DNA of 53,263 nt from Bacteroidota bacterium (GCA_046314695.1 JBKDBI010000464.1:1-53263), one strand, 5' to 3'. Numbered from the stretch's first letter, positions 8,908 through 48,686 are shown. Program-made: numbers and translations. Notes: generated by a model from the letters alone, not told the origin.

Positions 8908-11900
8908 ATGAGCCAAGCCCCCACTCAAGGTGCGTTGCCCGGCCAAGCTGGGTTTGACGTGTCGCCCTTCGGTTACGAGTCGATCTACTCGGCACCCCGT
9001 AACATCGTCTCCTCGCTGCTCGAAGGTGAAGCCACCTTGAGTGGGGGGATGGCTGCGATGTTCGCACAGGATCGGCTCACTCCGGCTGAGCGTAGCAGCA
9101 CGATCAGGCAGCGGCTTGAGGCGACGACGGGCGATTCATCGGTGAGCAAGGCGTTGTGGGGTGTGGTCACGAACCCGTGGGTGTGGCTGTTTGCGGTTAC
9201 GTCGCCTATTGGAGGCCGAGCGGCCAGTGAGATGTTTAGGTCGGCTCCCAAGTATGTGAGTTGGGTGTCCGATCGGTTCTCCGTGTTCAAGATGCTGGGT
9301 CTCACCAACATCCGATCGCAGCTCGGTGAGCGTGTCAACCAGATGGCCCATCGGGTGGGGGCGGTTCACGACGAGGTACTCAACCGGCCAGAGGTCAAGC
9401 GGGTGTTCGACGCTGAGACTGCCCTCATCAAGCAGCACGGCCTCGACCCCAAGATTGGGCTCAACTGGCGGGAGTACACGGATGGCGATCTGCGGAAGAC
9501 TGTGGCCCGCGACATCAGCACCCTGCTCCACGTACACAGGGACGGGATGCTCACGAATGTCTCGCCCACTCGACTCATGATCGACAAGCAGACCGGCAAG
9601 CTGGCCCTTGAGACGAGGAAGGAAGTACCTGCGCTGCTGACCAACAAGGAGAACTTTGGACGGTTGGTTCAGCAGTATGGGGTTGACGAGTACATCAAGG
9701 CGGTCGATGGGCTGTTCGACATGACGGCCAAACGAATGACCGATGATCCGAAGTGGTTGTTCCGCATGGCACGCGGCACGGGCAGTGCGAACGATGCGTT
9801 CAAGGACATCCATCAGCTTGTGAAGCCGAAGGACAAACTGACGAAGGCTCTGTTTGCTCGTATCAAGCAGATGGACCCTAACAACCCCGACGACGTGCGG
9901 GAGTTGAGCGAGACGTTCGTGCGTCGGTTCATCGAAGATAAGCACTACATGCCACGCAACACCCGTGAGTTGTACAGGAACGGGGAGGTACTGGATGGTA
10001 GAGCACTCAGTCAGGAGAAGAATGTCAGGCCGTCGGGACTGGTGTTTGAGCGGTCGAGGAGCAAGGTTCCCTACCACCCCGAAGACTTGGCGTACGCAGC
10101 ACGATTGATTGATGGGGTTGATCTGCCACAGCTCGCATCGCAGGCTGGCGACAAACCTGCGCGGTTGGTGCGGATGTATAAGGAGGGCAACCGGCAGCTC
10201 AAGGGGTTGCAGGGTGAGCCGGGTGCCGTCTACAGGATCGACTCGGCTCGCTCCATTGATCGCTACGTCAAGGACTACGCGCACAATGAGGCGATGTACA
10301 TGACAGATGTGGGTGATCTGGTGCGGGCTGCTGACCAGCAGTTGTGGGGCAACCTCAAGAAGAGCGGTGCGGTTGTTGAGACGAAGGAGACGTTCGGCGA
10401 CGGTGTGTCGTATGCGTTGCCGCTTGATGAGGTGGAGAAGCAGCTCAAGGGCGGAGTGAGTATCGCTGACTTGCTGGGTCAGGAGTACGTGCTGGCCAAG
10501 GGTCAGTACAACAGAGATCTCATCTCGCATGTGGTGGTGCCACACCTGATGGGTGTGCAGGAATCGCACAGCACGGCGGCTCGCGGAGCGGTGCTCTTCA
10601 CGAAGCAGCTGGCTCGGAACTTTAGCGAGGGCGTGATTGGTGATGGGATCAGGAAGACGGGCGAGTGGGGTCGTCGCTTTGTGGAGAAGATGGGGCAGTA
10701 CGGCAACTCGACAGATGCGGCGGGCGTGGCTCGCACGGCCTCCGAACTTCAGTACCGCGTGAGTCAGACGCTCTACTCGTCGCACCTCGGTATCCCTAAT
10801 GTGGGTTCAGCCCTCATCAACCTGACGCAGCCGATGCTGTTTGCGGGCTCGTGGGTCGGCTACGGTGACGTGCTGGCTGGGTACGGCGCGGCGTTCAAGC
10901 GGCTGGGTGGCTACTTCTCTGACCGCATGAAGATGGGGGCAAAGGTCATCAGCGAGACTGAGCGTAACCAGCTGATCGAGAAGCACTTTGGCGATCTGAC
11001 GAAGTTCAGGGTGGGCAACGAGACCCGCGATCTGCTGGAGATCGGAGAGTCAGGGCTTCAGTTGTACGAGGGCGTGGGCATGGGCCGCCGTGCGTCTGCG
11101 GCTGCTGAGACGACGTGGGACAAGTTCTTTCACGGGACCATGAGCCTGTTCCAGAAGGCGGAGTGGGTCAACCGCGTGACCACGGCAGAAGCAGCCTTGC
11201 GTCTGGCTAAGAGGCAGGGACTTGGTGCGGCGGACACTGCGCTGTTTGCGGACAGGGTGGTGAAGACCACCCAGTTTGGTGGGCACTGGATGGACCAGCC
11301 GCTGGCGTTCTTGGGTGGTAGCCAGAAGGTTGAGGGTGTGGCACGCATCACGTCGTTGGCACAGAATCCACTGCTGCGTCAGTTGCTGTCGTTCCCCACT
11401 CGGACGCTGGTGACGGCGTTTGAGACGGTGCCTCGGCTGGGAGGGCGTGAGGGACTGACGGGGTTCACGGGCTTCCTCAACGACATGGGCCGAGCAATGG
11501 CCATGAGTGCGTTGATGTGGGAGGTGGGTAAGGAGACGCTGGGCATTGATCTGGCGAGGGCTGGCATGTTCGCCGCCACCACCGACGCGATGCCCTTCAT
11601 GTCACAGGGCAGAGTGGACACGCGAGATTCGGTGCTGCCTTTGCCTCCGATCATCGACATTCCGGTGGCGGGCATCAAAAAGCTGTATGAGGATGGGACG
11701 GGAGCGGCGATCGCGGAGACGTTGCCAAGGCTGGTGCCGGGTGGTATCGGCTTCCAACGCATGTTCAACGTTGCACCGGAATTGCCGGGGCCGCTTCAGG
11801 CGGTGCTGGGCCAGAAGCAATTTGCCGACTGGAACAACCGTGCGGCAGATGGGTCGGTGCCCATCTACCGAGAAGATGGAACGCTGCTCCGGTTTGAGGA

Positions 11901-12360
11901 GCCCAAGCGGATGGTGTACCGATCGTTGGGTGTCGATCTGGGTGCGTGGAACCAACCCAGCCAGCTCGACAACTGGCTCGTGAAGAACCGCGATCAGATC
12001 GTGGGCTATCAGCACGAGTACATGCGCAAGATGCTGGGTAATGACCCGGGCGGGGCTGAGGGGGTGGCTCGTGAATTCGAGCGGCGTTATAGGTTGCCGC
12101 TCACTGTGACGAGGGATCAGTGGCGATCCTTCATCGACGCACGAACCACCCCCCGTACTGGTCGTGTACTCGAACGTGTCAACCCGCAGATCCGAGCACA
12201 GTTCCAGCAAGCCGCCAGCCAACTCAACCCGCTCAATCTTCAGGCTGATCCTGACCCAGATCTGCGTCAGGCTGCGATTCAAGGGATGGCTCCCCATCAG
12301 GCGTACGAAGCGATGACTGCCTACGGGGCTCAGCCCAACGGCGGAGCGGGCCAGCCATGA
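8908..12360 (+). CDS. Very large virion-associated protein (1150 aa), function unassigned
   Basis: Longest ORF in the window and last gene of the rightward arm. The start is uncertain: ATG 8908, in-frame TTG 8935 just after a motif copy, or ATG 9049. Confidence 0.65.
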   Translation: MSQAPTQGALPGQAGFDVSPFGYESIYSAPRNIVSSLLEGEATLSGGMAAMFAQDRLTPAERSSTIRQRLEATTGDSSVSKALWGVVTNPWVWLFAVTSPIGGRAASEMFRSAPKYVSWVSDRFSVFKMLGLTNIRSQLGERVNQMAHRVGAVHDEVLNRPEVKRVFDAETALIKQHGLDPKIGLNWREYTDGDLRKTVARDISTLLHVHRDGMLTNVSPTRLMIDKQTGKLALETRKEVPALLTNKENFGRLVQQYGVDEYIKAVDGLFDMTAKRMTDDPKWLFRMARGTGSANDAFKDIHQLVKPKDKLTKALFARIKQMDPNNPDDVRELSETFVRRFIEDKHYMPRNTRELYRNGEVLDGRALSQEKNVRPSGLVFERSRSKVPYHPEDLAYAARLIDGVDLPQLASQAGDKPARLVRMYKEGNRQLKGLQGEPGAVYRIDSARSIDRYVKDYAHNEAMYMTDVGDLVRAADQQLWGNLKKSGAVVETKETFGDGVSYALPLDEVEKQLKGGVSIADLLGQEYVLAKGQYNRDLISHVVVPHLMGVQESHSTAARGAVLFTKQLARNFSEGVIGDGIRKTGEWGRRFVEKMGQYGNSTDAAGVARTASELQYRVSQTLYSSHLGIPNVGSALINLTQPMLFAGSWVGYGDVLAGYGAAFKRLGGYFSDRMKMGAKVISETERNQLIEKHFGDLTKFRVGNETRDLLEIGESGLQLYEGVGMGRRASAAAETTWDKFFHGTMSLFQKAEWVNRVTTAEAALRLAKRQGLGAADTALFADRVVKTTQFGGHWMDQPLAFLGGSQKVEGVARITSLAQNPLLRQLLSFPTRTLVTAFETVPRLGGREGLTGFTGFLNDMGRAMAMSALMWEVGKETLGIDLARAGMFAATTDAMPFMSQGRVDTRDSVLPLPPIIDIPVAGIKKLYEDGTGAAIAETLPRLVPGGIGFQRMFNVAPELPGPLQAVLGQKQFADWNNRAADGSVPIYREDGTLLRFEEPKRMVYRSLGVDLGAWNQPSQLDNWLVKNRDQIVGYQHEYMRKMLGNDPGGAEGVAREFERRYRLPLTVTRDQWRSFIDARTTPRTGRVLERVNPQIRAQFQQAASQLNPLNLQADPDPDLRQAAIQGMAPHQAYEAMTAYGAQPNGGAGQP
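8918..8932 (+). repeat. Signature motif copy (CCCCCACTCAAGGTG)
   Basis: Co-oriented with the gene. It lies 7 nt after the ATG 8908 codon and is read as APTQG. An in-frame TTG follows at 8935. Confidence 0.95.
9033..9048 (-). repeat. Signature motif copy (minus strand)
   Basis: CACCTTGAGTGGGGGG on the plus strand, read as TLSGG. It is convergent with copy 8918, with 100 nt between them. Confidence 0.95.
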
Positions 12361-13441: not shown

Positions 13442-13457
13442 CACCTTGAGTGGGGGG
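13442..13457 (-). repeat. Signature motif copy (minus strand)
   Basis: CCCCCCACTCAAGGTG-cttt-ATG(13437). Confidence 0.95.
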
Positions 13458-13547
13458 AATGAACACCGGACACAAAGAAGCCCGCACCATTCCTGATGCG
13501 GGCTCCACGGAAGAGAGAGATGTTCTGCCGTTGATCGTGTGATCGCC

Positions 13548-13979: not shown

Positions 13980-13995
13980 CACCTTGAGTGGGGGG
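13980..13995 (-). repeat. Signature motif copy (minus strand)
   Basis: Intergenic, 20 nt after the stop of 14016..14606. In the transcription direction it is followed by an 8-bp hairpin GGGAGGCT/AGCCTCCC (13951-13978). Confidence 0.95.
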
Positions 13996-14015: not shown

Positions 14016-14606
14016 TCAAGCCTTGGGAGCGACGGCCACGCCCTGCACCAGCCGGTTGATGTAGACGTTCCGGTTGGTGTACTCCTTGCCGTTCTTGGCC
14101 GTGGTCTTCTTGCTGGCGCAGCTCACGTCGAGCTGGATGGCGGTGCCAGAAGAGTTGGCGGTGTCCATCAGATCGAGCACAGTCTGCACGTCGTTCTGGA
14201 GGGAGGCCGACGCTTCCTGCCCAGTGAGGTGCTGGTAGAAGCCCTTGAACTGGCTGAGGTTGATGCGGATGTTGGTCTGCTTACCGTCAGGCAGCTTCTT
14301 GACCTGATCGGGAGCCAGAGCGGGAAGCCGCATCGTCGAGCCCGTGAACTCCATGCCGCTGATGGCGGGGTCGGCGTGCTCGGGGATGATGTAGTGGGGG
14401 GTGATGTCGAAGCAGGGGACGGTGGGGCCATCCTTCTGATCGGACAACTGGAACTTGTCGATGCCCGTCTCGATCTTGGTGAGGACGACCGTGTACACGC
14501 CGTCCGGCGGGAAGCGACGGCCAGCGTCGGCCTTAGCCTCGGCGTACGCCTGAGAGATGGCGTTGAACTGGGACTGGAACTGAGCAAACGCAGAATCTGA
14601 AGACAT
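14016..14606 (-). CDS. Hypothetical protein (196 aa), possibly a DUF669-like / ssDNA-binding accessory of the neighbouring ATPase
   Basis: ATG 14606 (MSSDSAFAQF) with GGAG 5 nt upstream. The position directly after an AAA_24-like ATPase and the PPDGVYTVVLTKIE..F..T pattern are my only basis. Confidence 0.4.
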   Translation of the reverse strand: MSSDSAFAQFQSQFNAISQAYAEAKADAGRRFPPDGVYTVVLTKIETGIDKFQLSDQKDGPTVPCFDITPHYIIPEHADPAISGMEFTGSTMRLPALAPDQVKKLPDGKQTNIRINLSQFKGFYQHLTGQEASASLQNDVQTVLDLMDTANSSGTAIQLDVSCASKKTTAKNGKEYTNRNVYINRLVQGVAVAPKA

Positions 14607-15594: not shown

Positions 15595-16146
15595 TCAGTG
15601 AGTGATGTTGTTGATGCCCGCGATCCCTGCGGTCGCGTAGACCGGCACCTGATCGGGCTGACCGTCGAGACCGGCGAAGAGGTTGTCGGGCAACGTAGGC
15701 TGAACTCCCTCGCTCGGAGCCCGCACGTCGAGAGGCAGGGCAGTCTGCGGCTCGGGCCACTGCTGCTGAACCGGGTCTTCCTGCTGCATGATCGGTGAGC
15801 GGGGAGTGGGAACAGGCTGAGGCTGGGGGACGAAGGCGGTCTCGGCGACGAAGGCGCGGCGGGTGGTGATACCGAGGGCAGCGATCCACCGCTTCCACAT
15901 CGTGGGCTTCACCCGGATGGAGAAGCCCCGATTGGCGAGGGCCTTGTTGAACCGGGTCAACCCCCCACTCAAGGTGTTGTCTCCGCTGTTGATAGCAGCC
16001 AGCACATCGGCGCGAAGGTGGTCGATGATGCCGAAGCGGGGGTGCTCGATGTAGGGGAGCAGAGGATGGCTGGCGGGGAGCAGCCCGGTCAGCTTGCTGG
16101 GGCGAGAGCGGTTTGACTTGCGAGCACGAATCTTCTTGCGAGGCAT
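15595..16146 (-). CDS. Hypothetical basic protein (183 aa), possible DNA-binding
   Basis: ATG 16146 (MPRKKIRARKSNR) with a GGAGAA SD. It contains an antisense motif copy read as NTLSGG. Confidence 0.5.
   Translation of the reverse strand: MPRKKIRARKSNRSRPSKLTGLLPASHPLLPYIEHPRFGIIDHLRADVLAAINSGDNTLSGGLTRFNKALANRGFSIRVKPTMWKRWIAALGITTRRAFVAETAFVPQPQPVPTPRSPIMQQEDPVQQQWPEPQTALPLDVRAPSEGVQPTLPDNLFAGLDGQPDQVPVYATAGIAGINNITH
15961..15976 (+). repeat. Signature motif copy (plus strand)
   Basis: Perfect CCCCCCACTCAAGGTG, antisense inside gene 15595..16146. It is convergent with copy 16168, with 191 nt between them. Confidence 0.95.
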
Positions 16147-16167: not shown

Positions 16168-16183
16168 CACCTTGAGTGGGGGG
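16168..16183 (-). repeat. Signature motif copy (minus strand)
   Basis: Perfect copy 21 nt upstream of ATG 16146. Confidence 0.95.
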
Positions 16184-17981: not shown

Positions 17982-17997
17982 CTCCTTGAGTGGGGGG
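17982..17997 (-). repeat. Signature motif copy (CCCCCCACTCAAGGAG)
   Basis: CCCCCCACTCAAGGAG-ttcac-ATG(17976). Confidence 0.95.
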
Positions 17998-18000
17998 TCA

Positions 18001-18026
18001 ATCCCTCGGGCCGGAGTCGAACCGGC
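18001..18026 (-). other. tRNA-like fragment (T-arm plus 3' acceptor strand only)
   Basis: The minus strand reads GCCGG-TTCGACT-CCGGC-CCGAGGG-A. I could not fold a matching 5' acceptor strand, D-arm or anticodon arm. Confidence 0.3.
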
Positions 18027-18304
18027 TATCTCGATGAGGCTTCCCGGTGGTATAGCATCACAACGTGCCCACACTATCGAGAAGGAGGCCAGCACGGCTG
18101 GCTTTCTTGGCTTGCCTGCGTGTCACTGTCCACGCCGCCGAGGGGAAGTGCCCGTGCTCTCCGGGCTGTCACGAGTTTGCTTGCGCCGCCTGTTGGAGTT
18201 CAGGTGGCCCCTTGGGAACCAGAATCTCGTTCTTGGTCAGGAGGTCCGCGTCACCATAGGTGTAGGATGGTGACGCACAGCGAGGGAGCTGCGCTGCATT
18301 GGAA

Positions 18305-19273: not shown

Positions 19274-21427
19274 TCAGCTCCGAGAGAAGGGCGTGTTGGT
19301 AGGACGATTGAAGGTGCGGAAGCGGGTGCTCGGACGAGAAGGGAAGTTGCTGCCGTAGGGGCCGACCACGTTCACAGGGAACGGGTCGCCGTAAAGGTTG
19401 ACTTGGGGGCGAAGCCACGGAAGATGGGGCTCGGCTGCGGGAATGATGGTGTTGGGACCGAAGGGAGCAGAGAGGGTAGTGGGCGAGCCGGTGAGGTTGT
19501 AGCCCAAGAAGTCGACGGTGTTGATTTCGCGGATGCCGAAGAAGGCGCAGCCTCGGGCACCGCCCGTATCGCCCCCGACGATGTTACGGTTGGTGAGGCC
19601 GAGCATGTTCTGGGCGGGGTTTTCGTCACGCTGGTTGACGACAGAAAAGGCGGTGTTGAGCAGGAAAGAGCGGGTGGTTTGCGTGGTACGGGACCTGCCG
19701 AACAACTCGAAGAAGTGATTGGCTCGCCCGTCGAGGATGATGTCGCAGTTCGCAAAACCGATGAACACGCTGGTCTGAGCCTTGTTGTCGCCCACAGAAA
19801 AACAGCCGCCGATGAAGCGGTTGTTTTGGATGGCAGAAGTGAACAGGCGGCGGCTGCTCATCTGAAGTCGTGAGCCAACAAACAGGATGTTGTTGGTATT
19901 GGCAGGTAACGGGTCCGCGTCAGCCTGTGCGTTGAAAAGCAGGTCGTTTGCGGGGTTGGTGGAGATGTTGATGTCGCAACCGCTGTAGCAGCAATCGACA
20001 CCCAGCCCAGATGCGAAGGAGAGGGGGCCGTCCGGGATGGAGCACTCGATGAAGACGCAGCGTTGCCACGTAGCTTCGGCCTCGTGGTCAGGGCGGGCGT
20101 TCACACCGCGAGCCTCACCACTTCCGAGGAAGACCGTGGAGCCTCCGTCGTTCACCGCGTCTTGGGCTACGGTGCAACGGTAGCCGATGAGCAAGTCGAA
20201 GGGGGCACCAGATGCTCCCGAGTGGCCGTAGATCATGTTGCAGTGGCCGGTCGCGGTTCCTGTTGTGAGTGAGGTGCCGGAACCGGAAGGCCCTGCATTG
20301 ACCGAGCGGATGTTGCCGAAGGGAAACTGGCAGTAGCTGACGATACCCTCGTGCCCGCCGTTGTTTGAGTAGGAGACGTGAGGCGTGGAGTTGCCTCCCG
20401 TATCCCCCTGACAGAAGCCGATGACGCAGTTGTGGAACAGGACCGAGCCACCACCACCGCTCGTCTGCAAGTGGCCAATAGCGTGGTGCCCTGAGTAGGC
20501 AGTGACGCAGTTCTCAACAACTGCTTTCTGCGTGCCGCTGCACGAGACGTGAATGCAGTACCGCTGCCTCACGCCGTTGTCTGCGTCCATACCGAAGCCG
20601 ACGGCGGCGATGTTGCGGATGCAGTGATTGTCCGCAAGTCCCAGTTCAACACCCGCATTCTGAGAGATAGAGGCTTCGAGGATCGCGTCGGTAGCGGCGT
20701 TCGTACGACCCGTGCGGAACCTCACATAGAGCCGCTGGTTGGTCGTGTCGTAAACGGCGGAGTCCTGAGTAGGAGCATTATTCATCGCCGTCAGTGCGGT
20801 GGTGAGGTTGGCACCGACAGGCAGCCGCCCATACCAGCGGAAGGTGTTGGGCGAGAGGCCGAAGGCGAGGCCGTCGATGGGGTCGAGGTGCGAGTACCAG
20901 ACGTGGTAGACGGTCTGGGTAACGGCGCGAAACTGAAGATTGGTGTAAGTCCCGTCGGCGGTCCAGCCGCCAGAGCCGACTTGAATGGAGCCGAGCAACA
21001 GGGCGGAACGGGCGAGTCTGCCGTTGCTGCTGGTGTCTGCGGTGTAGGTTCGGGAGTAGGTGTTGAGTGTCCAGTTGGGCAGGGAGGGGAAGACAAGCCA
21101 CGAGTTGGCGATGTTGCCGGTGTCAGGACGGAACACGTCGCCCGAACGGAGCAGAATCTCGGTGTTCGCCACTTGCGGAACAAAGGAGTTGTTGACCATC
21201 AACGAGCGGAGGTCGGCAAGGTGCCGCACCAGAAACGGGCTGGCAAATGTACCTGCACCGCTGCCGCCGGTTGCGCTGCCGGAGCCGGACTGGGCAATGA
21301 ACCAGCGGTTAGTGCGGGTGGAGCCGACCGCGCTGCGCATGAGTTGGATGCTGGACTCGACCCACTCGTTCTCACCAGCGGAACGGGGAGCAGGCTTCGG
21401 GCCAAGCGAGTTGATGATGAACCCCAT
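19274..21427 (-). CDS. Tailspike / receptor-binding protein with a right-handed beta-helix (depolymerase-like) domain
   Basis: ATG 21427 with GGAG upstream. Repetitive Gly/Asn/Cys-rich rungs (NCVTAYSGHHAIGHLQTSGGGGSVLFHNCVIGFCQGDTGGNS...). Confidence 0.55.
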   Translation of the reverse strand: MGFIINSLGPKPAPRSAGENEWVESSIQLMRSAVGSTRTNRWFIAQSGSGSATGGSGAGTFASPFLVRHLADLRSLMVNNSFVPQVANTEILLRSGDVFRPDTGNIANSWLVFPSLPNWTLNTYSRTYTADTSSNGRLARSALLLGSIQVGSGGWTADGTYTNLQFRAVTQTVYHVWYSHLDPIDGLAFGLSPNTFRWYGRLPVGANLTTALTAMNNAPTQDSAVYDTTNQRLYVRFRTGRTNAATDAILEASISQNAGVELGLADNHCIRNIAAVGFGMDADNGVRQRYCIHVSCSGTQKAVVENCVTAYSGHHAIGHLQTSGGGGSVLFHNCVIGFCQGDTGGNSTPHVSYSNNGGHEGIVSYCQFPFGNIRSVNAGPSGSGTSLTTGTATGHCNMIYGHSGASGAPFDLLIGYRCTVAQDAVNDGGSTVFLGSGEARGVNARPDHEAEATWQRCVFIECSIPDGPLSFASGLGVDCCYSGCDINISTNPANDLLFNAQADADPLPANTNNILFVGSRLQMSSRRLFTSAIQNNRFIGGCFSVGDNKAQTSVFIGFANCDIILDGRANHFFELFGRSRTTQTTRSFLLNTAFSVVNQRDENPAQNMLGLTNRNIVGGDTGGARGCAFFGIREINTVDFLGYNLTGSPTTLSAPFGPNTIIPAAEPHLPWLRPQVNLYGDPFPVNVVGPYGSNFPSRPSTRFRTFNRPTNTPFSRS

Positions 21428-22108: not shown

Positions 22109-22124
22109 CCCCCCACTCAAGGTC
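22109..22124 (+). repeat. Signature motif copy (CCCCCCACTCAAGGTC, plus strand)
   Basis: Antisense to local genes. Its complement supplies the TGA stop of gene 22117..22503. Confidence 0.95.
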
Positions 22125-23317: not shown

Positions 23318-23826
23318 ACAAACTCCTTGAGTGGGGGGTACTGGTGCAGGAGAAGGAGGCGGACAACGAGTTCGCCTGCGGCCTTGCGTCCTGCGTCGGA
23401 CTTGGTGTCGATGAAGAAGAGGGAGATGCGGCGAGTTGAGAGTTCATGGATTAGGTGGTCGAAGGCGGGGCCGGGGTTGTGGGTCCAAGGAGCGGCTGGC
23501 TTGAAGAGGATGGAAGAGTTGCATTCGAGGAGGAGGATGGGGACGGGAAAGGCGGAGAGACGGTCGAAAGCGGCGAGGGTTCGGGCTCGGTCGTCAGTGA
23601 GGAGGTTCTTGCAGAGTTCGGAGGGGGAGCCTTTTCGCTCGATGATGCAGCGGGGAGCGGCACAGGAGAGCGAGTAATCCCCGGTCGGAAGCGTGCGAAC
23701 GAGTTTGTGGATGCGGATGACCCGACCTTCGGACGAGCGTGAGCCGGAGATTGTGTGGATCGTGGAGGGGAGGGGGAGCGGGTGCTGCTCACGCGAGTCG
23801 ATGAGGATGGTGTGCTCGGCTGGCAT
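23161..23826 (-). CDS. ERCC4 / Mus81-XPF-type endonuclease
   Basis: ILIDSREQHP ... LPTGDYSL ... IIERKGSPSELCKNL ... ILLLE matches the ERCC4 signature (D.RE ... GDY ... ERK..DL). Its 3' end overlaps the next gene by 157 nt. Confidence 0.6.
   Translation of the reverse strand: MPAEHTILIDSREQHPLPLPSTIHTISGSRSSEGRVIRIHKLVRTLPTGDYSLSCAAPRCIIERKGSPSELCKNLLTDDRARTLAAFDRLSAFPVPILLLECNSSILFKPAAPWTHNPGPAFDHLIHELSTRRISLFFIDTKSDAGRKAAGELVVRLLLLHQYPPLKEFVCPSDVLVTSPLSTSPTPQPPNSSENSDPGLSTSPASSVLPTSSPASPPQMR
23323..23338 (-). repeat. Signature motif copy (CCCCCCACTCAAGGAG)
   Basis: CCCCCCACTCAAGGAG-tttgt-ATG(23317). It lies inside the 3' tail of the ERCC4 ORF, where it is read as YPPLKE. Confidence 0.95.
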
Positions 23827-30430: not shown

Positions 30431-30437
30431 GGGTTAG

Positions 30438-30671
30438 TTACCTTGAGTGAGGGGTGGATGCGAGGAGGGCACGAGCACGAACATAGAGGCAAGTGGGCTC
30501 GTGCTCTACGGTTATACCTGTGATATAGCCAAAATGCACCTTGGCCCGGCAGAAGAAGCACTCGTGACCTTCTACGTTCCCGTAGCGAGTAACTGGTACC
30601 ATCCAGTCATCCATCTCGGCGAGTTCACGAAAGAGGGAGAAGGGCGTATCGGGAGCAGGCTTGTCGCTCAT
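30438..30671 (-). CDS. Hypothetical protein (77 aa) with a CFFC motif
   Basis: ATG 30671 (MSDKPAPD) lies 7 nt after motif 30679. Its stop TAA lies inside variant motif 30439. Confidence 0.5.
   Translation of the reverse strand: MSDKPAPDTPFSLFRELAEMDDWMVPVTRYGNVEGHECFFCRAKVHFGYITGITVEHEPTCLYVRARALLASTPHSR
30439..30454 (-). repeat. Signature motif variant (CCCCTCACTCAAGGTA)
   Basis: Two substitutions relative to the consensus. AAGGTAA contains the upstream stop codon, and ATG 30430 follows 8 nt later. Confidence 0.8.
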
Positions 30672-31336
30672 TGTGAAGCACCTTGAGTGGGGGGTGGGCC
30701 GGGTGGGACGATGGTGGGTGTGGAGATGGCGGGTGGTGAGCCGGAGAGGTGGGTGGAGAGGAGGGAGAGGTGGGAGAAGGCGGTGGACTTGCGCTCGGGG
30801 CGGAGGAGGATCTCGGCGGGGTCGAGCGTAGCGAAACGTTGGATGGAGAAGGGGGTGGAGGGGAGCGGGAAGACGGAGCCTTGAGTGGAGAAGGCTTCGG
30901 CTTGGGAGCAAGGAGAGTGGAGGAGAGAGTGGAGGGAGCGGACGGCTGGCGCGCCGATGCAGAGGATGGGGGTGGGGGTGGGGGGAAGGTGAGGGAGAAG
31001 GGAGAGGAGGGTGGGGAGGAGGTGGGTTCGAGAGCAGGTGGTGTAGAAGGCGGGCTTCACGCGGGAGGGGGCGGTGACGACGCAGCGGAGGATGGGGATG
31101 AAGATGGGTGAGATGGGGGGAAGGAGGGGAATGAAGGCGGAGGAGACGAGACGGTAGGTGCGAGAGGCGAGGATGGAGCCGGAGCGAGAATCGGTCGAGG
31201 GGGCGGGGAGCAGGATGATGAGAGGGGGGTGAGTGAGGGAGGAGGGGAGGATGGGAGGGACGGGATTGAAGAGGGCGGTCTCGTGCTGGGGACAGGAGGT
31301 GCAGGGTGCGATAGGCAGGGGAGTGGGCTCACGCAT
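30668..31336 (-). CDS. Possible divergent UDG-superfamily (family 4-like) protein
   Basis: ATG 31336 overlaps the upstream stop by 8 nt. LIILLPAPSTDSRSGSILASRTYRL, ILRCVV..P, TTCSRTHLL, ILCIGAPAV and STHLSGSP line up by eye with the family 4 UDG layout, but the GE(A/G)PG motif is not conserved. Confidence 0.3.
   Translation of the reverse strand: MREPTPLPIAPCTSCPQHETALFNPVPPILPSSLTHPPLIILLPAPSTDSRSGSILASRTYRLVSSAFIPLLPPISPIFIPILRCVVTAPSRVKPAFYTTCSRTHLLPTLLSLLPHLPPTPTPILCIGAPAVRSLHSLLHSPCSQAEAFSTQGSVFPLPSTPFSIQRFATLDPAEILLRPERKSTAFSHLSLLSTHLSGSPPAISTPTIVPPGPPPTQGASQ
30679..30694 (-). repeat. Signature motif copy (minus strand)
   Basis: Perfect copy, read as PPTQG in the last codons of 30668..31336. 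ATG 30671 follows 7 nt later. Confidence 0.95.
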
Positions 31337-31578: not shown

Positions 31579-32556
31579 TTAGGAGGGGAGGTCGGTGGGG
31601 ATTTGGGGGAGGGGACCGCCACGGGTGCGTTCGAGGAAGCCGTGGGGGTTGGAGGCGTCCTCCTCCGTGCGGGAGAGGATGCTGGGACGAGACTGGAGGT
31701 TGTGTGCCGGGTTGGCACGGGACATTGCGGCTTCGATGGAGGGGGTGATGCGGACGGCCCGCACTTCACTAAGGTAGTGCTCGGTGTTGGGGTCGTGGGG
31801 GATGGTGTCACGGCGAGCGGGTGGGGTGGGCGGGGTGACAGTGACTGGAGAGCGTAGTGTGTCTTGGTCGGCTTCTTCGTGGAGCCAGCAGGCAGGCGGG
31901 GTGTGGAAGGAGCGTTGAGCGTAAGTGATGACAGGGAAGCCGGTGAAGCGGCGACGGATATTGTCGAGCATCAAGCAGGCGAGAGCGGTGTTGCCGTAGA
32001 GGGTGGTGGGCACGCCGCATGAGCCGGGCTCGGGAGGGACGGCGGAATCGGGGAAGTGAGCGGAGAGGTAGGAGGCGTAGGAGGGGGCGTCGAAGATGGA
32101 GCGGAGGACGTAGTCGATGGCGCGGACACGGGGGGAGAGGTAGAGGTAGGGATCTGGACGATTTTCCAAGTGGGGGATGAGCTTGGAGGCGATGAAGGCG
32201 TCGGTGTCGCGTGAGTCTACGCAGGAGCAGACGATGGGGGTACAGGAGCGGAGGTCGTGGGCGGCGGACCAGCGACGGGCGTGGTAGGTGATGGAGATGG
32301 AGGGACGGGCGATGCGGAGTTCGGAAGCGAGAGCTTCGACCTTGAGGAGGCCGAGCTGGGCAGCGGACCAGCCTTGGGGGCCGAGGTTGTGCGGCTCGAT
32401 GGTGTCGAAGTCGATGAGGGTGAGGTGTGTGAAGCCGGTGTAGGCGAGTTGGCGGGCGAAGGCTGCGCCGGTGCCGCCGCAACCGATGATGGTGACGGGG
32501 AGGGAACGGATGGAGGGAGGGAGGAGGGCGGCGAAGCGGGTGTCGTCGATGGTCAT
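31579..32556 (-). CDS. ThiF/MoeB/E1-like adenylyltransferase
   Basis: ATG 32556 overlaps the JAB gene stop (ATGA). VTIIGCGGTGAAFARQLAYTGFTHLTLIDFDTIEPHNLGPQ ... KVEALASELRIARPS ... IVCSCVDS is the classical E1/ThiF Rossmann signature. About 130 aa of unassigned C-terminal sequence. Confidence 0.75.
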   Translation of the reverse strand: MTIDDTRFAALLPPSIRSLPVTIIGCGGTGAAFARQLAYTGFTHLTLIDFDTIEPHNLGPQGWSAAQLGLLKVEALASELRIARPSISITYHARRWSAAHDLRSCTPIVCSCVDSRDTDAFIASKLIPHLENRPDPYLYLSPRVRAIDYVLRSIFDAPSYASYLSAHFPDSAVPPEPGSCGVPTTLYGNTALACLMLDNIRRRFTGFPVITYAQRSFHTPPACWLHEEADQDTLRSPVTVTPPTPPARRDTIPHDPNTEHYLSEVRAVRITPSIEAAMSRANPAHNLQSRPSILSRTEEDASNPHGFLERTRGGPLPQIPTDLPS

Positions 32557-34127
32557 GAGTACAACTCCTGCTGGGTGGTGGTCTTGAGGGCGGTGAGGGA
32601 AGTGACGAGTTCGTCGAAGACTTCTGTGAATGCAGTGTCGAGAGCGTCGGACTCTGAGAAGGTACTGTGCTCGCAGATGTGGGACCAAGCGAGTTCGTAG
32701 CGAAGGAGGCAGCCGACGGCGAGGATGGATTGGTCGGGGTTGAGAGTGAGGAGGAGGGTGTTGATGCGGGACACGTCGGAGGGGGTCCACTCCCACTCGT
32801 CACGGGCAGCAGACCACGAGATGCGGAATGCGCCGGTGGATTCGTCGTACTGGAAGACGCGGGAGTCGGCGATGAAATCCTTGATGTCGGAGACGGAGAT
32901 GGGAGAGGAGTGGGGTCGCCACTCGATGGCGTAGAAGGCTTCGTACCAAGTGTCCTCGGGGTTGGTGGGGTTGAGGCTGGGGTTGAAGATGGGGAGCAGG
33001 GTGGGGAAGGTGGAGGGGGTGAGCATGGCACGCCACTTAGAGAAGGAGGTGGCACGCTTGTACTGGACGAGGGGGCCAGAGTCAGATTGAGACTTGGATT
33101 GAGCGAAGTAGGGGGTGAGGGAGGAGGCGAGCCATGTGGCAACAGGGGTGAGGAGGGTGCCCATGAAGGACTGCATGTTGCCGATGAAGTCGTGCCACGC
33201 TTTGCGGATGACGGGGGCAGCGTCGGGGTGAACGAGGTAGGGGAAGGATTCGGAGTCGGGAATGAGCCACGACTGGTTGACAGCTTCGGAGAGGGGGATG
33301 TAGCCGAGGGAGCGGGCGTGCTGAGAGGTGACGGATTGGAAGGGAGGGTGAACGAAGGAGGAGAGCTGGGCGTAGAGGGAACGCTTGAGGGCTTCGTTCT
33401 TGGATTCGGACTGGGTGTGCCAGTTGGTGGTGAGGTTGTGGGAGTAGATGGTGGCGGGAGTGATGGTGGGTGCGCCGGGATTGGCGGCGAGGGCGGACTG
33501 GAGGAAAGCGAGACGATCGGCGGGGGAGAGGGGGAAGGGTGTGCCATCTTCGAGGAAGGCACGGAAGGGGCAGTAGTAGAGGAGCTTGGCCGGGCCGTCG
33601 TAGACGGGAGGGGAGGAGGCGAGAGCGGGGAAGCCGGGGATGACGGCGGGGCCAAGGGGATAGCGGACGCGGAGAGAGAACTCGGGGAAGGCGGTGGGTG
33701 AGGTGGGGCGACCGAAGATGAGCATCATGGCGAAGGGGCCAGTCGATTGGACGGTGCGCCAGTTGGAGTCGTCGCCGCCGGAGGGGGTGGCGGACTCGCC
33801 GGGGTGGGTGTGGAAGATGAGGTTGGTGCAGCAGGGGAGTGCGTTGGGGGAGGTGTCGAAGACGGAGAGCGAGTCGGTGGGGTCGATCTCGAAGGAGGCT
33901 GCGGTGGATTGTTGGCGGGGGACGAAAATGTCGATGATCTTGAAGGGATCGGCGGGGTCGGGTATGAGGAGAGCGGCGGTCTCGCGGGTGCGGAGCGGGT
34001 TGGGCTCGTCGTTGGAGATGGAGGGAGCAAGGGCGAGCAGGTGGAGTTTGAGGTAGGCGAGAGCGGAGAGGGTGACGGTGGGCTGGACGGTGGGATGGTC
34101 AGACGACGGCGGCTTGCGATTCGACAT
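32553..34127 (-). CDS. JAB/MPN+ (JAMM) metalloprotease domain protein with a large unassigned C-terminal region (524 aa)
   Basis: ATG 34127 (MSNRKPPSS). RETAALLIPD ... NLIFHTHPGESATPSGGDDSNW gives a complete E...HxHx7Sx2D signature. Confidence 0.7.
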   Translation of the reverse strand: MSNRKPPSSDHPTVQPTVTLSALAYLKLHLLALAPSISNDEPNPLRTRETAALLIPDPADPFKIIDIFVPRQQSTAASFEIDPTDSLSVFDTSPNALPCCTNLIFHTHPGESATPSGGDDSNWRTVQSTGPFAMMLIFGRPTSPTAFPEFSLRVRYPLGPAVIPGFPALASSPPVYDGPAKLLYYCPFRAFLEDGTPFPLSPADRLAFLQSALAANPGAPTITPATIYSHNLTTNWHTQSESKNEALKRSLYAQLSSFVHPPFQSVTSQHARSLGYIPLSEAVNQSWLIPDSESFPYLVHPDAAPVIRKAWHDFIGNMQSFMGTLLTPVATWLASSLTPYFAQSKSQSDSGPLVQYKRATSFSKWRAMLTPSTFPTLLPIFNPSLNPTNPEDTWYEAFYAIEWRPHSSPISVSDIKDFIADSRVFQYDESTGAFRISWSAARDEWEWTPSDVSRINTLLLTLNPDQSILAVGCLLRYELAWSHICEHSTFSESDALDTAFTEVFDELVTSLTALKTTTQQELYS

Positions 34128-42556: not shown

Positions 42557-43012
42557 ATGAAACCCACGATCGGCACACTGTCCGACCGCTCCTTCAACAA
42601 CTACCTCTCAATCCTCGAAGGCTCGTCCAAACTCTCCCCCGCCACCCAGCTCTCCATCCTGCACTCCATGCGGCACAACTTCCGTGCCCAAGACTTCGCA
42701 GCCATCACCCAAGACATCGCCCAGAAGGCCAAAGCCACCGGGAGCAACCGGAGCAGCCGCGACATCCTCATGACCCCCACTCAAGGTGTGGGCCGAGGCC
42801 GCTCTTCATCTTCAGTTGTGCCTGTTGCGACCGCCGCAAGGAGAGCTTCAACTCAATCCGTTATGCCAGTTCAAAAGCCTGTGCGCGGTGGTCGCCAACT
42901 TGATCCCACCATCCTATCATCTCGTACCGCCGCCATCAACCCCCTGTCCGATTTCCCCCTCACGCTCGGCTCAGCCAATGCCCCCCTCGTCTTCACGCCC
43001 CCCGTCCTCTGA
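42557..43012 (+). CDS. First gene of the rightward arm, hypothetical (151 aa)
   Basis: GGAG lies 8 nt before ATG 42557 (MKPTIGTLSDRSF). It is divergent from the helicase start, only 44 bp away. Confidence 0.45.
   Translation: MKPTIGTLSDRSFNNYLSILEGSSKLSPATQLSILHSMRHNFRAQDFAAITQDIAQKAKATGSNRSSRDILMTPTQGVGRGRSSSSVVPVATAARRASTQSVMPVQKPVRGGRQLDPTILSSRTAAINPLSDFPLTLGSANAPLVFTPPVL
42774..42788 (+). repeat. Signature motif copy (plus strand)
   Basis: CCCCCACTCAAGGTG, read as TPTQGV in 42557..43012. Confidence 0.95.
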
Positions 43013-43027: not shown

Positions 43028-43044
43028 CGCCTTGAGTGGGGGGG
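43028..43044 (-). repeat. Signature motif copy (CCCCCCCACTCAAGGCG, minus strand)
   Basis: Lies 15 nt after the TGA of 42557..43012. It is convergent with 42774, with 239 nt between them. Confidence 0.9.
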
Positions 43045-46444: not shown

Positions 46445-46661
46445 CCAACCGACTATCCACCCCTCGCACGTCGTCATCCCCCTCTCTCTCTTCCGACTGC
46501 TTGCCGAAGCCTACTACCGAGGGCAGCCCCCCACTCAAGGTGCAGGGACAGGAGCGAGGAAGCCGGAAGATGCGGACTGGCTGCGAGCATATAGTGAGCA
46601 ACGGAGCCAGAACCCGATGCTGTGGCAGGATGCGGATGAAGGCGGAGCGGATCAAGAGTGA
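46374..46661 (+). CDS. Possible small ORF between terminase and portal (95 aa)
   Basis: The only start (ATG 46374) lies 71 nt inside terL. It contains a motif copy read as PPTQG. Confidence 0.25.
   Translation: MLFSQTPPNATSPTPPALETLSSNQPTIHPSHVVIPLSLFRLLAEAYYRGQPPTQGAGTGARKPEDADWLRAYSEQRSQNPMLWQDADEGGADQE
46527..46542 (+). repeat. Signature motif copy (plus strand)
   Basis: Perfect copy 140 nt upstream of the portal ATG. Confidence 0.95.
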
Positions 46662-46682: not shown

Positions 46683-48686
46683 ATGCACGTTGCGTTGCCT
46701 GACAACCCGGAAGCCCTCGCAGCCCTCATCGAGGAGCATGTGCAGCAGCAGCTCACGGCGTTCTCGTACCGTCGTCTCATCTGGAATCTGGTTTACCACT
46801 ACCTGAACGGGTGCCGCCGCTTCGACGTGTTCGATCCCAAGTCGAACACGATCAGGCCCTACGAGCTGGACGAGCAGGGCCGGTTGGAGTTGCAGGGACC
46901 GGAAGTCGTCCGCAAGATCGACCAAGTGACCGGACTGCTTGCCTCTCTTGACTTCAGGCCGAGGGTGGGTCGCACAGGTTCGTCGCTGCGGTCGATGCGT
47001 GAACGAGCCGGCGCACAGGTGATCGTGGACAACATCATCAACGACAACACCATCAGGCCGTTCAAGGTGATGGCCGCGCACGTGCTCGCCTCGCTGGGAT
47101 GTGTGGGCATTCAGGGTCACGTCAAGGACTTGCCGGTCGTGGGGCTCACGGGTCATCTTGAGGTGATTCACCCCCGCGAGTTGCTGCCGTTCCCTGCCGC
47201 CACGACCGACTACACCAAGCAGCAGTCGTTCATCCGCATCCAAGCGTTTCCCCTGAAGATGCTCGAAGAGAAGCTCGACCGAAAGCTGACGGAGAAGGAG
47301 CTTCAGGGCTGCAAGAAGTACAGAAGGCGAATCGGCGACACGCTCGCACCCGATCACCACGAAGCCAACTCCTATCCGCACTCGCCCAGCCGCTCAAGCG
47401 GAAGCACCTTGAGTGGGGGGTCGGGCAAGGCGCGAGATGAGATGTTTGAGGATGTGATTCTTACGCGGCAGTTGTGGAACATCGGGCACGGCGGGTTGGT
47501 CCATGACTTTGTAGTCAGCAGTGGGCGATCCATTCTGCTGCATCAGAAGGCAGAGGGCGTGCCGCTCTATCCCAGCATCGGCATCGCACGGTTCATCGAG
47601 AACGGGTCGTTCTACGGTATCGGTGCGTTTGACATCGTGTTTCACTACGCGAGGTCGCTGGAGAAGATGGTCAAGCTGATGTTGCAGAACATCAGCGACA
47701 TGGACTCGTTTGGGTGCGTGGTGTTGCCGCAGACGATGGACGCGAATGCCACGCTCAAGCAGGTGGGTCCGGGGCTCAAGGCGTTGTTCCATTCGCCCGA
47801 TCCCTCCCTTTACGAGTCGAACTTCAGACCGTTCCCCATCACGCCGTTCAACACGGGAGACGCGGCAGGTCGAGGTGCGGCGTTTATTCAGGGGCTCATG
47901 CAGACGGTCGATCCGTATCCTGACTTGGCCAGAGAGAAGGGTCGAGTGGAGAGTGCAGCTGGGTTGCGGATGCTGGACGACAAGTTGAAGTCGGGCACTG
48001 TGACGGGCACGACCAATCTGACGGCGGCTTGTGCGGTCGTGTATCGCTCGATGCTTATTGATGCTGCGAGCATGTTGTTGACTAGTCCGCGACCGATCCC
48101 GGTGTCGAGGTTGACGCTTGATCTGGCGGGTGTGAGCATTGACACGGACACCATGCAGGTGCAGTTCAATGACAACCCGCTGCCCAACGTCAATCTGTTG
48201 ACGGTGGACCTGACTGAGGGTTCTCCCCAGAATCCGCTGGTGGCCAAGATGGAGGCGGTTGAGCTATTGAAGCTCGGGGTGAACACGCCTGAGTCGTTCA
48301 AGCGGTACTGCATCAAGCAGGGCATCGACTTGGCTGCGGACATCGACGGTGAAAAGGCGGCACAGGAGACAGCGGTGATCCGCATCCTGACCATTTTCAA
48401 CGATGGCAAGTCGCCGGGCGAGGTGGTGCTGACGCAGTACAACACGCGGCCCGATGTGGAATTGGCGTTGCTCAGTGACTTCTTGCCGAGTCCCGTCGTG
48501 CAGTTTGCGTCACCCGATGTGCAGAACGCGCTGGGTGATTATCGAGATGCGCTGATTCAGTTCTCGGGTCGAACGCTGCCTGAAGCGGTGCCTAGCCCGG
48601 TGGACATGGCGACGCTCAATCAGGGTCCGATGAATCCGCTACAATCGGCTGGCGGGGCCGTGGGTGCTCCGCCGATGCAGATGTGA
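46683..48686 (+). CDS. Portal protein (by position and size, 667 aa)
   Basis: GGGAG lies 6 nt before ATG 46683. It sits between terL and the scaffold/capsid genes. No motif verified by eye. Confidence 0.55.
   Translation: MHVALPDNPEALAALIEEHVQQQLTAFSYRRLIWNLVYHYLNGCRRFDVFDPKSNTIRPYELDEQGRLELQGPEVVRKIDQVTGLLASLDFRPRVGRTGSSLRSMRERAGAQVIVDNIINDNTIRPFKVMAAHVLASLGCVGIQGHVKDLPVVGLTGHLEVIHPRELLPFPAATTDYTKQQSFIRIQAFPLKMLEEKLDRKLTEKELQGCKKYRRRIGDTLAPDHHEANSYPHSPSRSSGSTLSGGSGKARDEMFEDVILTRQLWNIGHGGLVHDFVVSSGRSILLHQKAEGVPLYPSIGIARFIENGSFYGIGAFDIVFHYARSLEKMVKLMLQNISDMDSFGCVVLPQTMDANATLKQVGPGLKALFHSPDPSLYESNFRPFPITPFNTGDAAGRGAAFIQGLMQTVDPYPDLAREKGRVESAAGLRMLDDKLKSGTVTGTTNLTAACAVVYRSMLIDAASMLLTSPRPIPVSRLTLDLAGVSIDTDTMQVQFNDNPLPNVNLLTVDLTEGSPQNPLVAKMEAVELLKLGVNTPESFKRYCIKQGIDLAADIDGEKAAQETAVIRILTIFNDGKSPGEVVLTQYNTRPDVELALLSDFLPSPVVQFASPDVQNALGDYRDALIQFSGRTLPEAVPSPVDMATLNQGPMNPLQSAGGAVGAPPMQM
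47405..47420 (-). repeat. Signature motif copy (minus strand) inside the portal gene
   Basis: Perfect copy, antisense to the gene, read as STLSGGS within the Ser/Gly-rich loop HSPSRSSGSTLSGGSGKARDE. Confidence 0.95.

Follow-up and report, generated by a model that had tools for sequence, protein, structure and literature searches.

The phage genome and its repeated word

The contig JBKDBI010000464.1 (assembly GCA_046314695.1, Bacteroidota bacterium), which is 53,263 nt long and is referred to here in its entirety as the window, represents the whole, or nearly the whole, genome of an uncultured phage with a G+C content of 62%. Scattered along both of its strands is a 15-nt motif, CCCCCACTCAAGGTG (CACCTTGAGTGGGGG when read on the opposite strand), and it is the placement, conservation and possible function of this word that are described below. 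The genes on the + strand (43–53 kb and 0–12.4 kb) encode TerL, the portal, probable capsid and adaptor proteins, a glycosyltransferase and large virion proteins. Those on the − strand (12.4–42.4 kb) include genes for a PD-(D/E)XK nuclease, an AAA_24 protein, an ERCC4-like nuclease, polA, and ThiF and JAB proteins, together with many small proteins and an SF3/D5-type helicase lacking a primase domain. Searches of Pfam, PHROGs and PDB sequences found no RNA polymerase, integrase, recombinase, repressor, nickase or small terminase.

The 12-nt core of the word, CCCCACTCAAGG, is present in 21 exact copies and three with one mismatch, compared with 0.59 expected from shuffles of the window, and 24 copies were reached in none of 100 shuffles. 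Six of the copies are on the + strand and 18 on the − strand. The conserved block is compact (15–18 nt), with no second box beside it.

The phage family has no counterpart among the 50,697 deposited phage records that were searched: megablast of 29.5 kb gave no nucleotide match, tblastn found no match to the TerL protein, and polA was matched at only about 26%. Scans of IMG/VR for the motif and for TerL returned single chance matches only. Close relatives were instead reached in metagenomes via the helicase, the nuclease and the 690-aa protein. Relative A, with about 79% nucleotide identity to the window, is represented by the loci L019, L020 and L150, and by L027 from another sample, referred to here as A2; relative B, with about 75–79% identity, is represented by L021, L022, L025 and L026.

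Conservation of the word inside genes

It is the nucleotide word itself that is under selection, whichever strand it occupies and also within genes. In the portal gene, the copy at 47405–47419 (−) has 14 nt (C ACC TTG AGT GGG G) that are identical in the window, A and B, synonymous sites included. It sits in a hypervariable, indel-rich Ser/Thr/Pro linker whose flanking residues differ among the three phages, and only 37% of the identical-residue columns in the portal gene share a codon. Coding copies throughout the window's clade lie in such variable, indel-prone protein loops, and they are confined to certain reading frames. The C-rich form of the word reads (P)PTQG, at two sites in polA, in the 1150-aa gene and in the 151-aa gene, while TLSGG is the reading of the G-rich form in the portal gene, gene 15595..16146, the 1150-aa gene and ORF 55..456. 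A stop codon (CA-CCT-TGA) occupies the third frame of the latter form, and this frame is never used.

Copies come and go by two routes. One is by short in-frame indels, such as the 27-nt block that carries the copy 8919 and is an indel relative to B. A polA copy (P-T-Q-G) common to A (L150:8675–8686) and B (L025:1311–1322) has likewise been lost from the window, at about 26200, through a 15-nt in-frame deletion; the remaining polA copy, at 25242–25256 (−; P-P-T-Q-G), is kept in both relatives beside an indel. The other route is by clustered substitutions, exemplified by the helicase and the 1124-aa gene of B. At the site in gene 15595..16146, B has S-I-S-G-G written with other codons, and no word. 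Two further coding copies complete the set: a solo copy at 429–443 (−), antisense to the + genes near the 3' end of ORF 55..456, where it reads T-L-S-G-G, and a one-mismatch copy at 30877–30891 (−) inside gene 30668..31336. For annotation, the lesson is that perfectly conserved 15-mers within phage genes need not encode protein information.

Use as a ribosome-binding site

In the window's clade, the 3' end of the word (AAGGTG or AAGGAG) doubles as the Shine–Dalgarno sequence of at least eight early or middle genes. Eight − copies lie 6–10 nt upstream of − strand start codons with this hexamer at the Shine–Dalgarno position, and the number of copies with a predicted start 4–12 nt downstream is 8, compared with 0.15 expected at random positions (P < 5e-5). 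They are found at 13442–13456 (AAGGTG, 6 nt before ATG 13437; kept in A2 and B), 17982–17996 (AAGGAG, 7 nt, ATG 17976; kept in B), 23323–23337 (AAGGAG, 7 nt, ATG 23317; kept in A and B), 30176–30190 (8 nt to ATG 30169), 30439–30453 (one mismatch, 10 nt to ATG 30430), 30679–30693 (9 nt to ATG 30671; kept in A), 37012–37026 (7 nt to ATG 37006) and 37297–37311 (one mismatch, 8 nt to ATG 37290), all on the − strand. A degenerate copy, CCCCACTCAGGA, at 36181–36192 (−) is similarly placed 9 nt before ATG 36171. Several copies occupy the entire gap between one stop codon and the next start. The remaining genes of the phage use ordinary GGAG, AAGG or AGGA sites. Because it pins intergenic copies to the coding (−) strand, Shine–Dalgarno use largely accounts for the 18:6 strand bias.

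Some copies are close to hairpins. The copy 13442–13456 directly follows a terminator-like hairpin at 13477–13506, and the degenerate copy at 36181–36192 directly follows another at 36202–36231. Two copies are themselves followed by hairpins (13982 and 36255, by core start): that at 13980–13994 (−), which lies 22 nt past the stop of gene 14016..14606 and is kept in A2 and B, precedes the conserved hairpin GGGAGGCT..AGCCTCCC, and that at 36253–36267 (−), past the stop of gene 36270..36563 and kept in A, precedes the hairpin at 36202–36231.

Could the word be a promoter for an unrecognized phage RNA polymerase, the pairs described below being convergent promoters? Such a reading would draw on the compactness of the block, its single box, its position upstream of and co-oriented with many genes, and the copies that come directly after the hairpins at 13477–13506 and 36202–36231. 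The T3 promoter core, CCCTCACTAAAGGGA, matches CCCCCACTCAAGGTG at 11 of 15 positions. However, phages with T7/T3/SP6-type promoters have a cognate RNA polymerase, and none was found among the window proteins of more than 300 aa: there was no match to PF00940 or to any other polymerase profile, no PDB sequence match and no catalytic motifs. A terminator immediately after a promoter, as there would be at 36255 and 13982, makes no sense; a sigma-70-type promoter (TTGACC, 17 nt, TATTGT) is present at 40520–40548 (−); and in the wider family the copies are mostly within genes, on either strand. A promoter function is therefore very unlikely.

The start-associated copies also bear on another explanation, namely that the word is a cassette leader (word, Shine–Dalgarno, ATG, gene, stop) that provides microhomology for cassette swaps among co-infecting relatives, the inverted pairs being leftovers of cassettes inserted in either orientation. 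A cassette indel has its junction at the copy 37012–37026: the 87-aa gene (37027–37290) that lies between the direct copies 37299 and 37014 in the window is missing from A, and the junction there (L150:1–60), CTCCTCCACT|AAAGGAAT, is that of a deletion or insertion via ...CCACT... microhomology. A also lacks the 109-aa gene between the arms of the pair at 22111/23325. Homology blocks with A begin or end at 37014, 30681 and 22111, and three of 48 internal block ends are within 5 nt of a copy, compared with 0.6 expected, although the tendency of blocks to end at conserved islands is in part produced by the alignment. Cassette exchange would not explain the nucleotide conservation of the portal and polA copies, or the occurrence of the core in conserved genes across the family, and no inversion between inverted copies is seen. 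As the reason for the existence of the word, it is improbable.

Inverted pairs

Each of the six + copies is followed by a − copy downstream, just as a preliminary description of this sequence had claimed. The cores of the + copies start at 8919, 15963, 22111, 41025, 42775 and 46529 and those of their − partners at 9035, 16170, 23325, 41073, 43030 and 47407, and the pairs are named here by these positions. The start-to-start distances are 116, 207, 1214, 48, 255 and 878 nt, in agreement with the gaps given in that description (100, 191, 1198, 32, 239 and 862 nt). The nearest − copy upstream of a + copy is 1.7–8.5 kb off, or 3.4–78 times farther away than the downstream one. When the − copies are held fixed and the + copies are placed at random, the probability of at least four pairs within 260 nt is 7e-4, while shuffling of the strand labels among the 24 sites gives P = 7e-3, and P = 2e-3 for the geometric mean distance; all of these statistics rest on six + copies only. 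The convergent arrangement is unlikely to be due to chance. Since the pairs are non-random and relative A keeps all five that can be tested there, some selection for nearby opposite-strand copies is likely.

In four pairs, including those in the portal and in the 1150-aa virion protein, at least one arm is within a protein-coding gene. Both arms of 8919/9035 are inside the 1150-aa gene, the C-rich arm (8918–8932, +) in codons 4–9 (A-P-T-Q-G-A) and the arm that is G-rich in the mRNA (9033–9047, −) in codons 42–47 (T-L-S-G-G). They thus lie downstream of ATG 8908, which is conserved in a relative, and do not enclose the 5' end of the gene as had been proposed. In 15963/16170 the G-rich arm (15962–15976, +; T-L-S-G-G) is at codon 57 of gene 15595..16146, where it had been placed before, and the C-rich arm (16168–16182, −) is 23 nt upstream of ATG 16146. 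The G-rich arm of 22111/23325 (22110–22124, +) is intergenic, 43 nt upstream of ATG 22066, and the C-rich arm is the start-associated copy 23323–23337. In 42775/43030 the C-rich arm (42774–42788, +; T-P-T-Q-G) is in the 151-aa gene 42557..43012, and the G-rich arm (43028–43042, −) falls between its stop at 43012 and GTG 43053, with its G-run at Shine–Dalgarno distance from the next gene. Finally, 46529/47407 has its C-rich arm (46528–46542, +) in the TerL–portal spacer and its G-rich arm in the hypervariable linker of the portal, where it reads T-L-S-G-G.

Pair 41025/41073 differs from the others in being a compact hairpin at 41019–41087 (−), made up of the two arms (41024–41038, + and 41071–41085, −) and an inner stem. 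It is located just past the helicase gene, as had been noted, 22 nt beyond the stop codon, and has the features of an intrinsic terminator: about 30 bp of GC-rich stem followed by U5, with a predicted energy of −53 kcal/mol (z = −5.6). The corresponding hairpin in A has a different and shorter loop, a z of −4.5 and no U tract, and in B the 435 nt past the helicase stop are free of the motif. The hairpin is probably an intrinsic terminator, by its sequence, at one pair in one lineage. The earlier suggestion that the pairs are terminators thus holds for 41025/41073, and fails for the other five, which have loops of 100–1198 nt. The layout at this pair also raised the idea of an SF3-helicase origin beside the helicase gene. 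The layout, inverted copies next to an AT-rich stretch, occurs in the window and in A, and the idea was not supported in distant relatives: of the 26 with sequence downstream of the helicase stop, 22 have no copy within 700 nt of it and none has a pair there.

What becomes of the pairs in relatives? The pairing is conserved in A, where 8919/9035 is not covered and all of the other five are kept. (For 15963/16170, both arms are present in A2.) B, on the other hand, keeps only 22111/23325 and 46529/47407, the C-rich arm of the latter being at shifted positions in both relatives. One arm is gone from B at three loci, leaving 9035, 16170 and 43030 as single copies, and both arms are gone at a fourth, the helicase hairpin. 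The arm at 42775, which is present in A, is the one missing from the third of these loci, and an opposite-strand copy is newly sited in the helicase gene of B (~42037). A further new + copy is found in B at ~11789, in the large virion gene. Both of these new + copies have − copies downstream, at 1.0 and 1.7 kb. The preliminary description had named the survival of single copies without their pairs in relatives as evidence against its interpretation; this is seen for three pairs in B, and not in A.

The pairs were first interpreted as long-range RNA clamps or RNase III sites, and a broader form of this explanation holds that the C-rich, extended ribosome-binding word pairs with the reverse-complement copy downstream in a 13–17 bp duplex, and so sequesters the ribosome-binding site, couples the translation of neighbours, creates a processing site or terminates transcription. 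Much in the window is consistent with such control. Eight copies supply a Shine–Dalgarno sequence 6–10 nt from a start codon, the C-rich arm precedes the G-rich one on every transcript, and the helicase hairpin is strong and followed by U5. At 42775/43030 the C-rich arm is inside the upstream gene and the G-rich arm overlaps the Shine–Dalgarno position of the next, a geometry that would allow translational coupling. Conservative codon changes gave gene 15595..16146 its G-rich arm; minimum-free-energy folds bring the arms together, which is to be expected of any perfect GC-rich 15-mer; and A retains all five testable pairs.

However, the complementarity between arms, although perfect as first described, is that of the consensus alone: it measures 13–17 bp, close to the 14–16 bp originally given, is never extended beyond the word, and shows no compensatory or wobble changes. 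At the three loci where B lacks an arm there is no substitute complement, the best duplex energies being at background level, compared with −35 kcal/mol for an intact window pair. The pairs kept in all three phages span 0.9–1.2 kb of translated genes, and the polA copies and the G-rich solo copy 431 are partnerless. Near-continuous double-stranded RNA of about 20 bp or more, as expected of an RNase III site, is found only at 41025/41073, which reaches about 30 bp by way of its inner stem. In the family as a whole the word is 8–10 nt long, equally frequent on either gene strand and not start-associated, so an RNA role would be a recent add-on. There is thus little evidence that the pairs act as clamps, and control at the RNA level is an unlikely explanation of the word, although the geometry at 42775/43030 leaves room for an RNA role confined to this clade.

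The preliminary description had also considered that the pairs might bound invertible DNA segments. The repeats are indeed perfect and inverted, and a segment of reversed GC skew at 40.6–46.5 kb is bounded by 41073 (−) and 46529 (+). However, the alignable inter-arm segments are collinear with their flanks in every assembly, which amounts to a small sample of two to four independent assemblies per pair. Inversion would break the genes for the portal, the 1150-aa protein and gene 15595..16146, and the order of genes in the TerL region is the same in relatives at 27–40% identity. Unlike Hin/Gin/Cin-type or shufflon systems, there is neither a recombinase (60 proteins were scanned for recombinase and integrase domains with Pfam and 20 with PHROGs) nor the presence of both orientations. 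No evidence points to action as a DNA switch, and inversion is extremely improbable. Overall, the interpretation first given to the pairs is partly supported.

The word across the phage family

A TerL-profile scan of metagenome contigs yielded 80 loci from marine and freshwater samples, on contigs of up to 58 kb with G+C contents of 38–66% and with TerL proteins that are mostly 35–45% identical. Among the 46 loci that are 9 kb or longer, 29 contain the core CCCCCACT 4–10 times, compared with 0.35–1.1 expected. Among 17 non-redundant distant relatives (TerL about 40% identical), CCCCCACT is the most enriched 8-mer, with 125 copies compared with 9.5 expected, or 13-fold; its near-variants are enriched about 2.5–3.6-fold or not at all, giving a consensus of about T-C6-ACT. 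The shared word in these phages is 8–10 nt long and occurs on either strand of genes (51 sense, 61 antisense and 13 intergenic copies, in genomes with a coding fraction of 0.91). The split between DNA strands is 74:51, and the association with start codons is absent. In the conserved portal peptide L-S-P-H-Y-L-D-E-E-G-N, 13 of 15 distinct versions that encode S-P-H have it written exactly as TCC-CCC-CAC, with free variation in the codons on either side.

The word differs between lineages. The dialect of the window's clade is C6ACT-CAAGGTG and that of some other lineages is C6ACT-GG. Five loci (L202, L205, L206, L210 and L023) lack the C6ACT core and have 11-nt words of their own, present in 6–14 copies per 12–22 kb. 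These lineage-specific words (CCCCTCTCCCG, CCCCCTCCCGT, GACCGTCCCAC and TCGGATGGGAC, with TCTCTCACACC in L023) likewise occur about once per 1–2 kb on both strands, mostly within genes and with some tight inverted hairpins; such hairpins of words are found in L202, L205 and L166. No description of the word was found in the literature, where the sample accessions likewise led to no relevant paper.

Opposite-strand copies also lie close to same-strand copies in the family as a whole, as they do in the window. Family-wide, neighbours are on opposite strands in 18 of the 21 adjacencies of 450 nt or less, compared with an average of 11 in label shuffles (P = 0.0017), and the strand alternates in 74 of all 108 adjacencies. 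As many of these sites are orthologous, fewer of the events are independent. At the TerL–portal junction an inverted pair recurs in many lineages, in either order, with a spacing of 98–125 or 277–409 nt in other lineages and 862–938 nt in the window's clade, and the gene order around TerL is unchanged in relatives down to 27–40% identity. In distant relatives convergent and divergent adjacent pairs are equally common (37 each) and similarly spaced, and for this reason the all-convergent rule is confined to the window's clade.

These observations bear on the possibility that the word is functional but that its convergent pairing is not, being a chance arrangement inherited by close relatives. 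The number of + copies is only six and the label-shuffle probabilities are modest (2e-3 to 7e-3); relative A is not an independent sample, B retains only two of the six pairs, and distant relatives show no convergent preference. On the other hand, an excess of inverted neighbours at short range is seen throughout the family, both extra + copies of B again have − copies downstream, and a cluster of codon choices made or kept the partner arm that gene 15595..16146 carries 191 nt from its mate. Pairing without any function of its own is quite unlikely.

A proposed DNA self-recognition word

Why would a phage family write a short word into its genome, even within its essential genes? The set of properties resembles that of bacterial uptake sequences, and the word is therefore best read as acting at the level of DNA, as a recognition word for a putative phage protein. 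The 15-nt motif would be the dialect of one clade, built on the core T-C6-ACT that is used across a large uncultured family of phages with genomes of about 50–58 kb. We put the probability of this reading at about 0.4.

The word would be read on double-stranded DNA by a putative phage-encoded, sequence-specific protein, which probably acts at a step where the phage treats its own DNA preferentially: packaging, replication, recombination or nicking. It would accumulate and persist much as the uptake sequences of Neisseria and Haemophilus do. The window's clade would then have lengthened the word to 15 nt and co-opted it as a ribosome-binding site. The inverted pairing suggests a two-sided use, for example by a head-to-head pair of protein molecules, or that both orientations are needed within a short distance. 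Any RNA duplex formed between the arms would be a by-product, except in the hairpin past the helicase gene, which is probably also a terminator. More generally, the family may mark its own genome either with dialects of T-C6-ACT or with unrelated 11-mers, written through codon choice and read by a fast-evolving putative protein, with inverted pairs as the preferred unit. We offer this wider proposal as tentative and somewhat doubtful.

Several points weigh against a DNA recognition word. No binding protein was identified in sequence searches of Pfam, PHROGs and PDB. A strand-neutral word does not explain why all six pairs in the window's clade are in convergent order (compare 37 with 37 in distant relatives), and five of the six pairs are 100–1198 nt apart, unlike the tight hairpins of uptake sequences. 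Since many family-wide sites are orthologous, there have been fewer independent events than the counts suggest. A perfectly conserved stretch of 15 nt is longer than a single protein domain would lead one to expect, and base-pairing with a nucleic acid would fit as well. The word is transcribed wherever it is located, and an RNA-level role is compatible with the sequence and may exist.

If the reading is correct, the word would be a viral counterpart of bacterial uptake sequences, and the window's clade would have tied gene expression to the same signal. A phage protein that reads it would represent a new self-recognition step in the life cycle of a phage, at packaging, replication, recombination or nicking. 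Members of the family could also be spotted in metagenomes by this sequence tag, and the word might serve to manipulate these phages independently of their hosts.

Comparison with known systems

Genome-wide words are known from bacteria (uptake sequences, Chi and the FtsK-orienting polar sequences, KOPS) and from a few phage groups (start-associated sequences, SAS; stoperators; nick words), in which their functions are mostly unresolved. Genome-wide phage words are thus an already known kind of element. Three features stand out here, in a deep and environmentally widespread family: clear nucleotide-level selection in essential genes, lineage dialects and a tendency to inverted pairing. We believe that an uptake-sequence-like signature across a deep phage family, with a clade-specific fusion to the ribosome-binding site and convergent pairs, is new.

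Bacterial uptake sequences come in dialects with a conserved core, have intragenic copies in preferred frames and in poorly conserved segments, and form intergenic inverted pairs that act as terminators (bioRxiv 10.1101/2025.10.24.684340, PMC3630211). The likeness of the phage word to the DNA uptake sequences (DUS) of Neisseriaceae and the uptake signal sequences (USS) of Pasteurellaceae covers an asymmetric 9–12 nt word that both strands carry in strong excess, lineage dialects built on a common core, the confinement of coding copies to particular frames and poorly conserved protein segments, and the avoidance of the reverse-form frame with its stop codon (CA-CCT-TGA). A tight inverted intergenic pair with the features of a terminator hairpin occurs once in the window (41019–41087). 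The differences are that the carrier is a phage and not a competent bacterium, with no uptake machinery or ComP; that the word of the window's clade is 15 nt long, biased 18:6 between strands, and doubles as a ribosome-binding site; and that most window pairs are 100–1200 nt apart and are not tight hairpins.

The SAS of Cluster K mycobacteriophages are asymmetric 13–15 nt words with a Shine–Dalgarno core, present in 11–24 copies that are mostly in one orientation (PMC3203893). They lie a few nucleotides upstream of the starts of non-structural genes, are conserved across subclusters and absent elsewhere, and have no known function (PMC3203893). The extended SAS (ESAS) inverted repeats are a separate 17-bp element upstream of SAS, and not reverse copies of it (PMC3203893). 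The window word is similar in that it contains a Shine–Dalgarno core and is found a few nucleotides before start codons. However, SAS are nearly all at gene starts and in one orientation, whereas a third of the window copies are inside genes or reversed, structural genes (portal and 1150-aa) and polA included, and the ancestral core of the window word is not start-associated.

Cluster A mycobacteriophages carry about 24–30 stoperators, copies of a 13-bp asymmetric word that are located in short intergenic gaps and oriented with transcription. Their consensus varies among subclusters along with the binding protein, and their function needs the immunity repressor of a temperate phage. Copy number, asymmetry and a consensus that varies among lineages are shared with the window word, while no repressor or integrase was found in the window and many of the window copies are inside genes.

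Nick words are known from T5, phiKMV-like phages and phage tf, where sequences of 9–19 nt occur about 4–14 times per genome, at similar positions in relatives (PMC3517423). They drift slightly between lineages, apparently co-evolving with the enzyme, and their function is enigmatic; two of them have an ACT or CTA/C core (TACT/RTGMC and CCTA/CTCCGG) (PMC3517423). Like the window word, they are short consensus words scattered through podovirus genomes irrespective of coding. Could the word then be the recognition sequence of a phage nickase, the packaged DNA carrying single-strand interruptions at the copies? Its length, conserved relative positions and drift among lineages match those of the known nick words (PMC3517423), and 75% of the window copies are on one strand. 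However, the known words are strictly one-stranded, while here six of 24 copies are on the other strand and the split in distant relatives is 51:74. Opposite-strand copies are sometimes only 18–48 bp apart, where nicks would risk double-strand breaks, and the association with start codons is not expected of nick sites. No nickase was identified in Pfam, PHROGs or PDB sequence searches. Nicking at the copies is thus rather improbable.

Other features of the genome

Some candidates for the origin of the motif were tried and rejected. For a host repeat or prophage, a search of 185,579 species genomes with a word of 14 specified bases gave, among the matches listed, scattered single matches in unrelated taxa. 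The one multi-copy locus listed, L039:90–490, on a contig binned with a Halothiobacillus neapolitanus metagenome-assembled genome, is an unrelated tandem array of ~33-nt units; the unit holds CCCCACTCAAGG-like words, there is no true homology to the phage, and the resemblance is probably coincidental. No tRNA or Rfam element was found. A tRNA T-arm-like sequence, CCGGTTCGACTCCGG, is located at ~17996–18040 (−), just upstream of the copy 17984 and within a 310-nt non-coding gap, where ARAGORN and a permissive Rfam scan found no tRNA.

The region past the helicase gene at 40415–41108 (−) is a 700-nt non-coding stretch with a G-rich segment, and contains an AT-rich tract, TTATATATATTTTTCAGGTGTCAAAAAAACG, at ~40910–40950, and a hairpin, GGGGAGGGA..CCCTCCCC. 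A role as an origin or as an early control region is possible. Non-coding sequence also fills a second gap, at 39201–39895. The idea that the genome has a terminus at 40.65 kb was dropped, since contigs from relatives end nearby and not at one base. The JGI contig Ga0114337_1000219 (54,634 bp) corresponds to the window plus a 1,371-bp terminal overlap that maps, by coordinates, to 29652–31022, a stretch containing four direct copies of the motif (30178–30890). The overlap suggests a direct terminal repeat or a circularly permuted genome.

GC skew in the window is very strong, up to +0.57 on the + strand at 24–36 kb, and is reversed (−0.2 to −0.5) over the 5.9-kb segment at 40.6–46.5 kb, from the helicase through TerL. 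It follows the DNA strand and not the direction of transcription. The peak of cumulative skew, at 40632, is 0.4 kb away from the hairpin pair, and a local minimum at 46536 falls within the copy 46529. The reversed segment around TerL and the helicase is also present in A and B, while distant relatives have little skew; the notion that the orientation of copies tracks GC skew was not seen to hold in the latter.

A canonical intrinsic terminator, GCGGGCAG..CTGCCCGC followed by T5, is located at 8860–8895 (+), 12 nt before the ATG of the 1150-aa gene, and is conserved in B with a compensatory G/C change. The 1150-aa virion protein itself (8908–12360) has a weak match to phrog_11358 (E = 1.8e-6), which covers 75 residues of a 3,431-position profile. 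At 19274–21427 (−), among the replication genes and on the strand opposite to the structural module, is the gene for a protein of 717 aa, rich in Gly, Ser, Thr and Asn, with the look of a beta-helix fibre or spike. Finally, ThiF (E1-like), JAB-domain and 690-aa Ser/Pro/Leu/Thr-rich proteins are encoded in a row at 31579–36171 (−), which looks like a ubiquitin-like conjugation or deconjugation module; identity with relative A is only 36% for the 690-aa protein, compared with 88% for the helicase.

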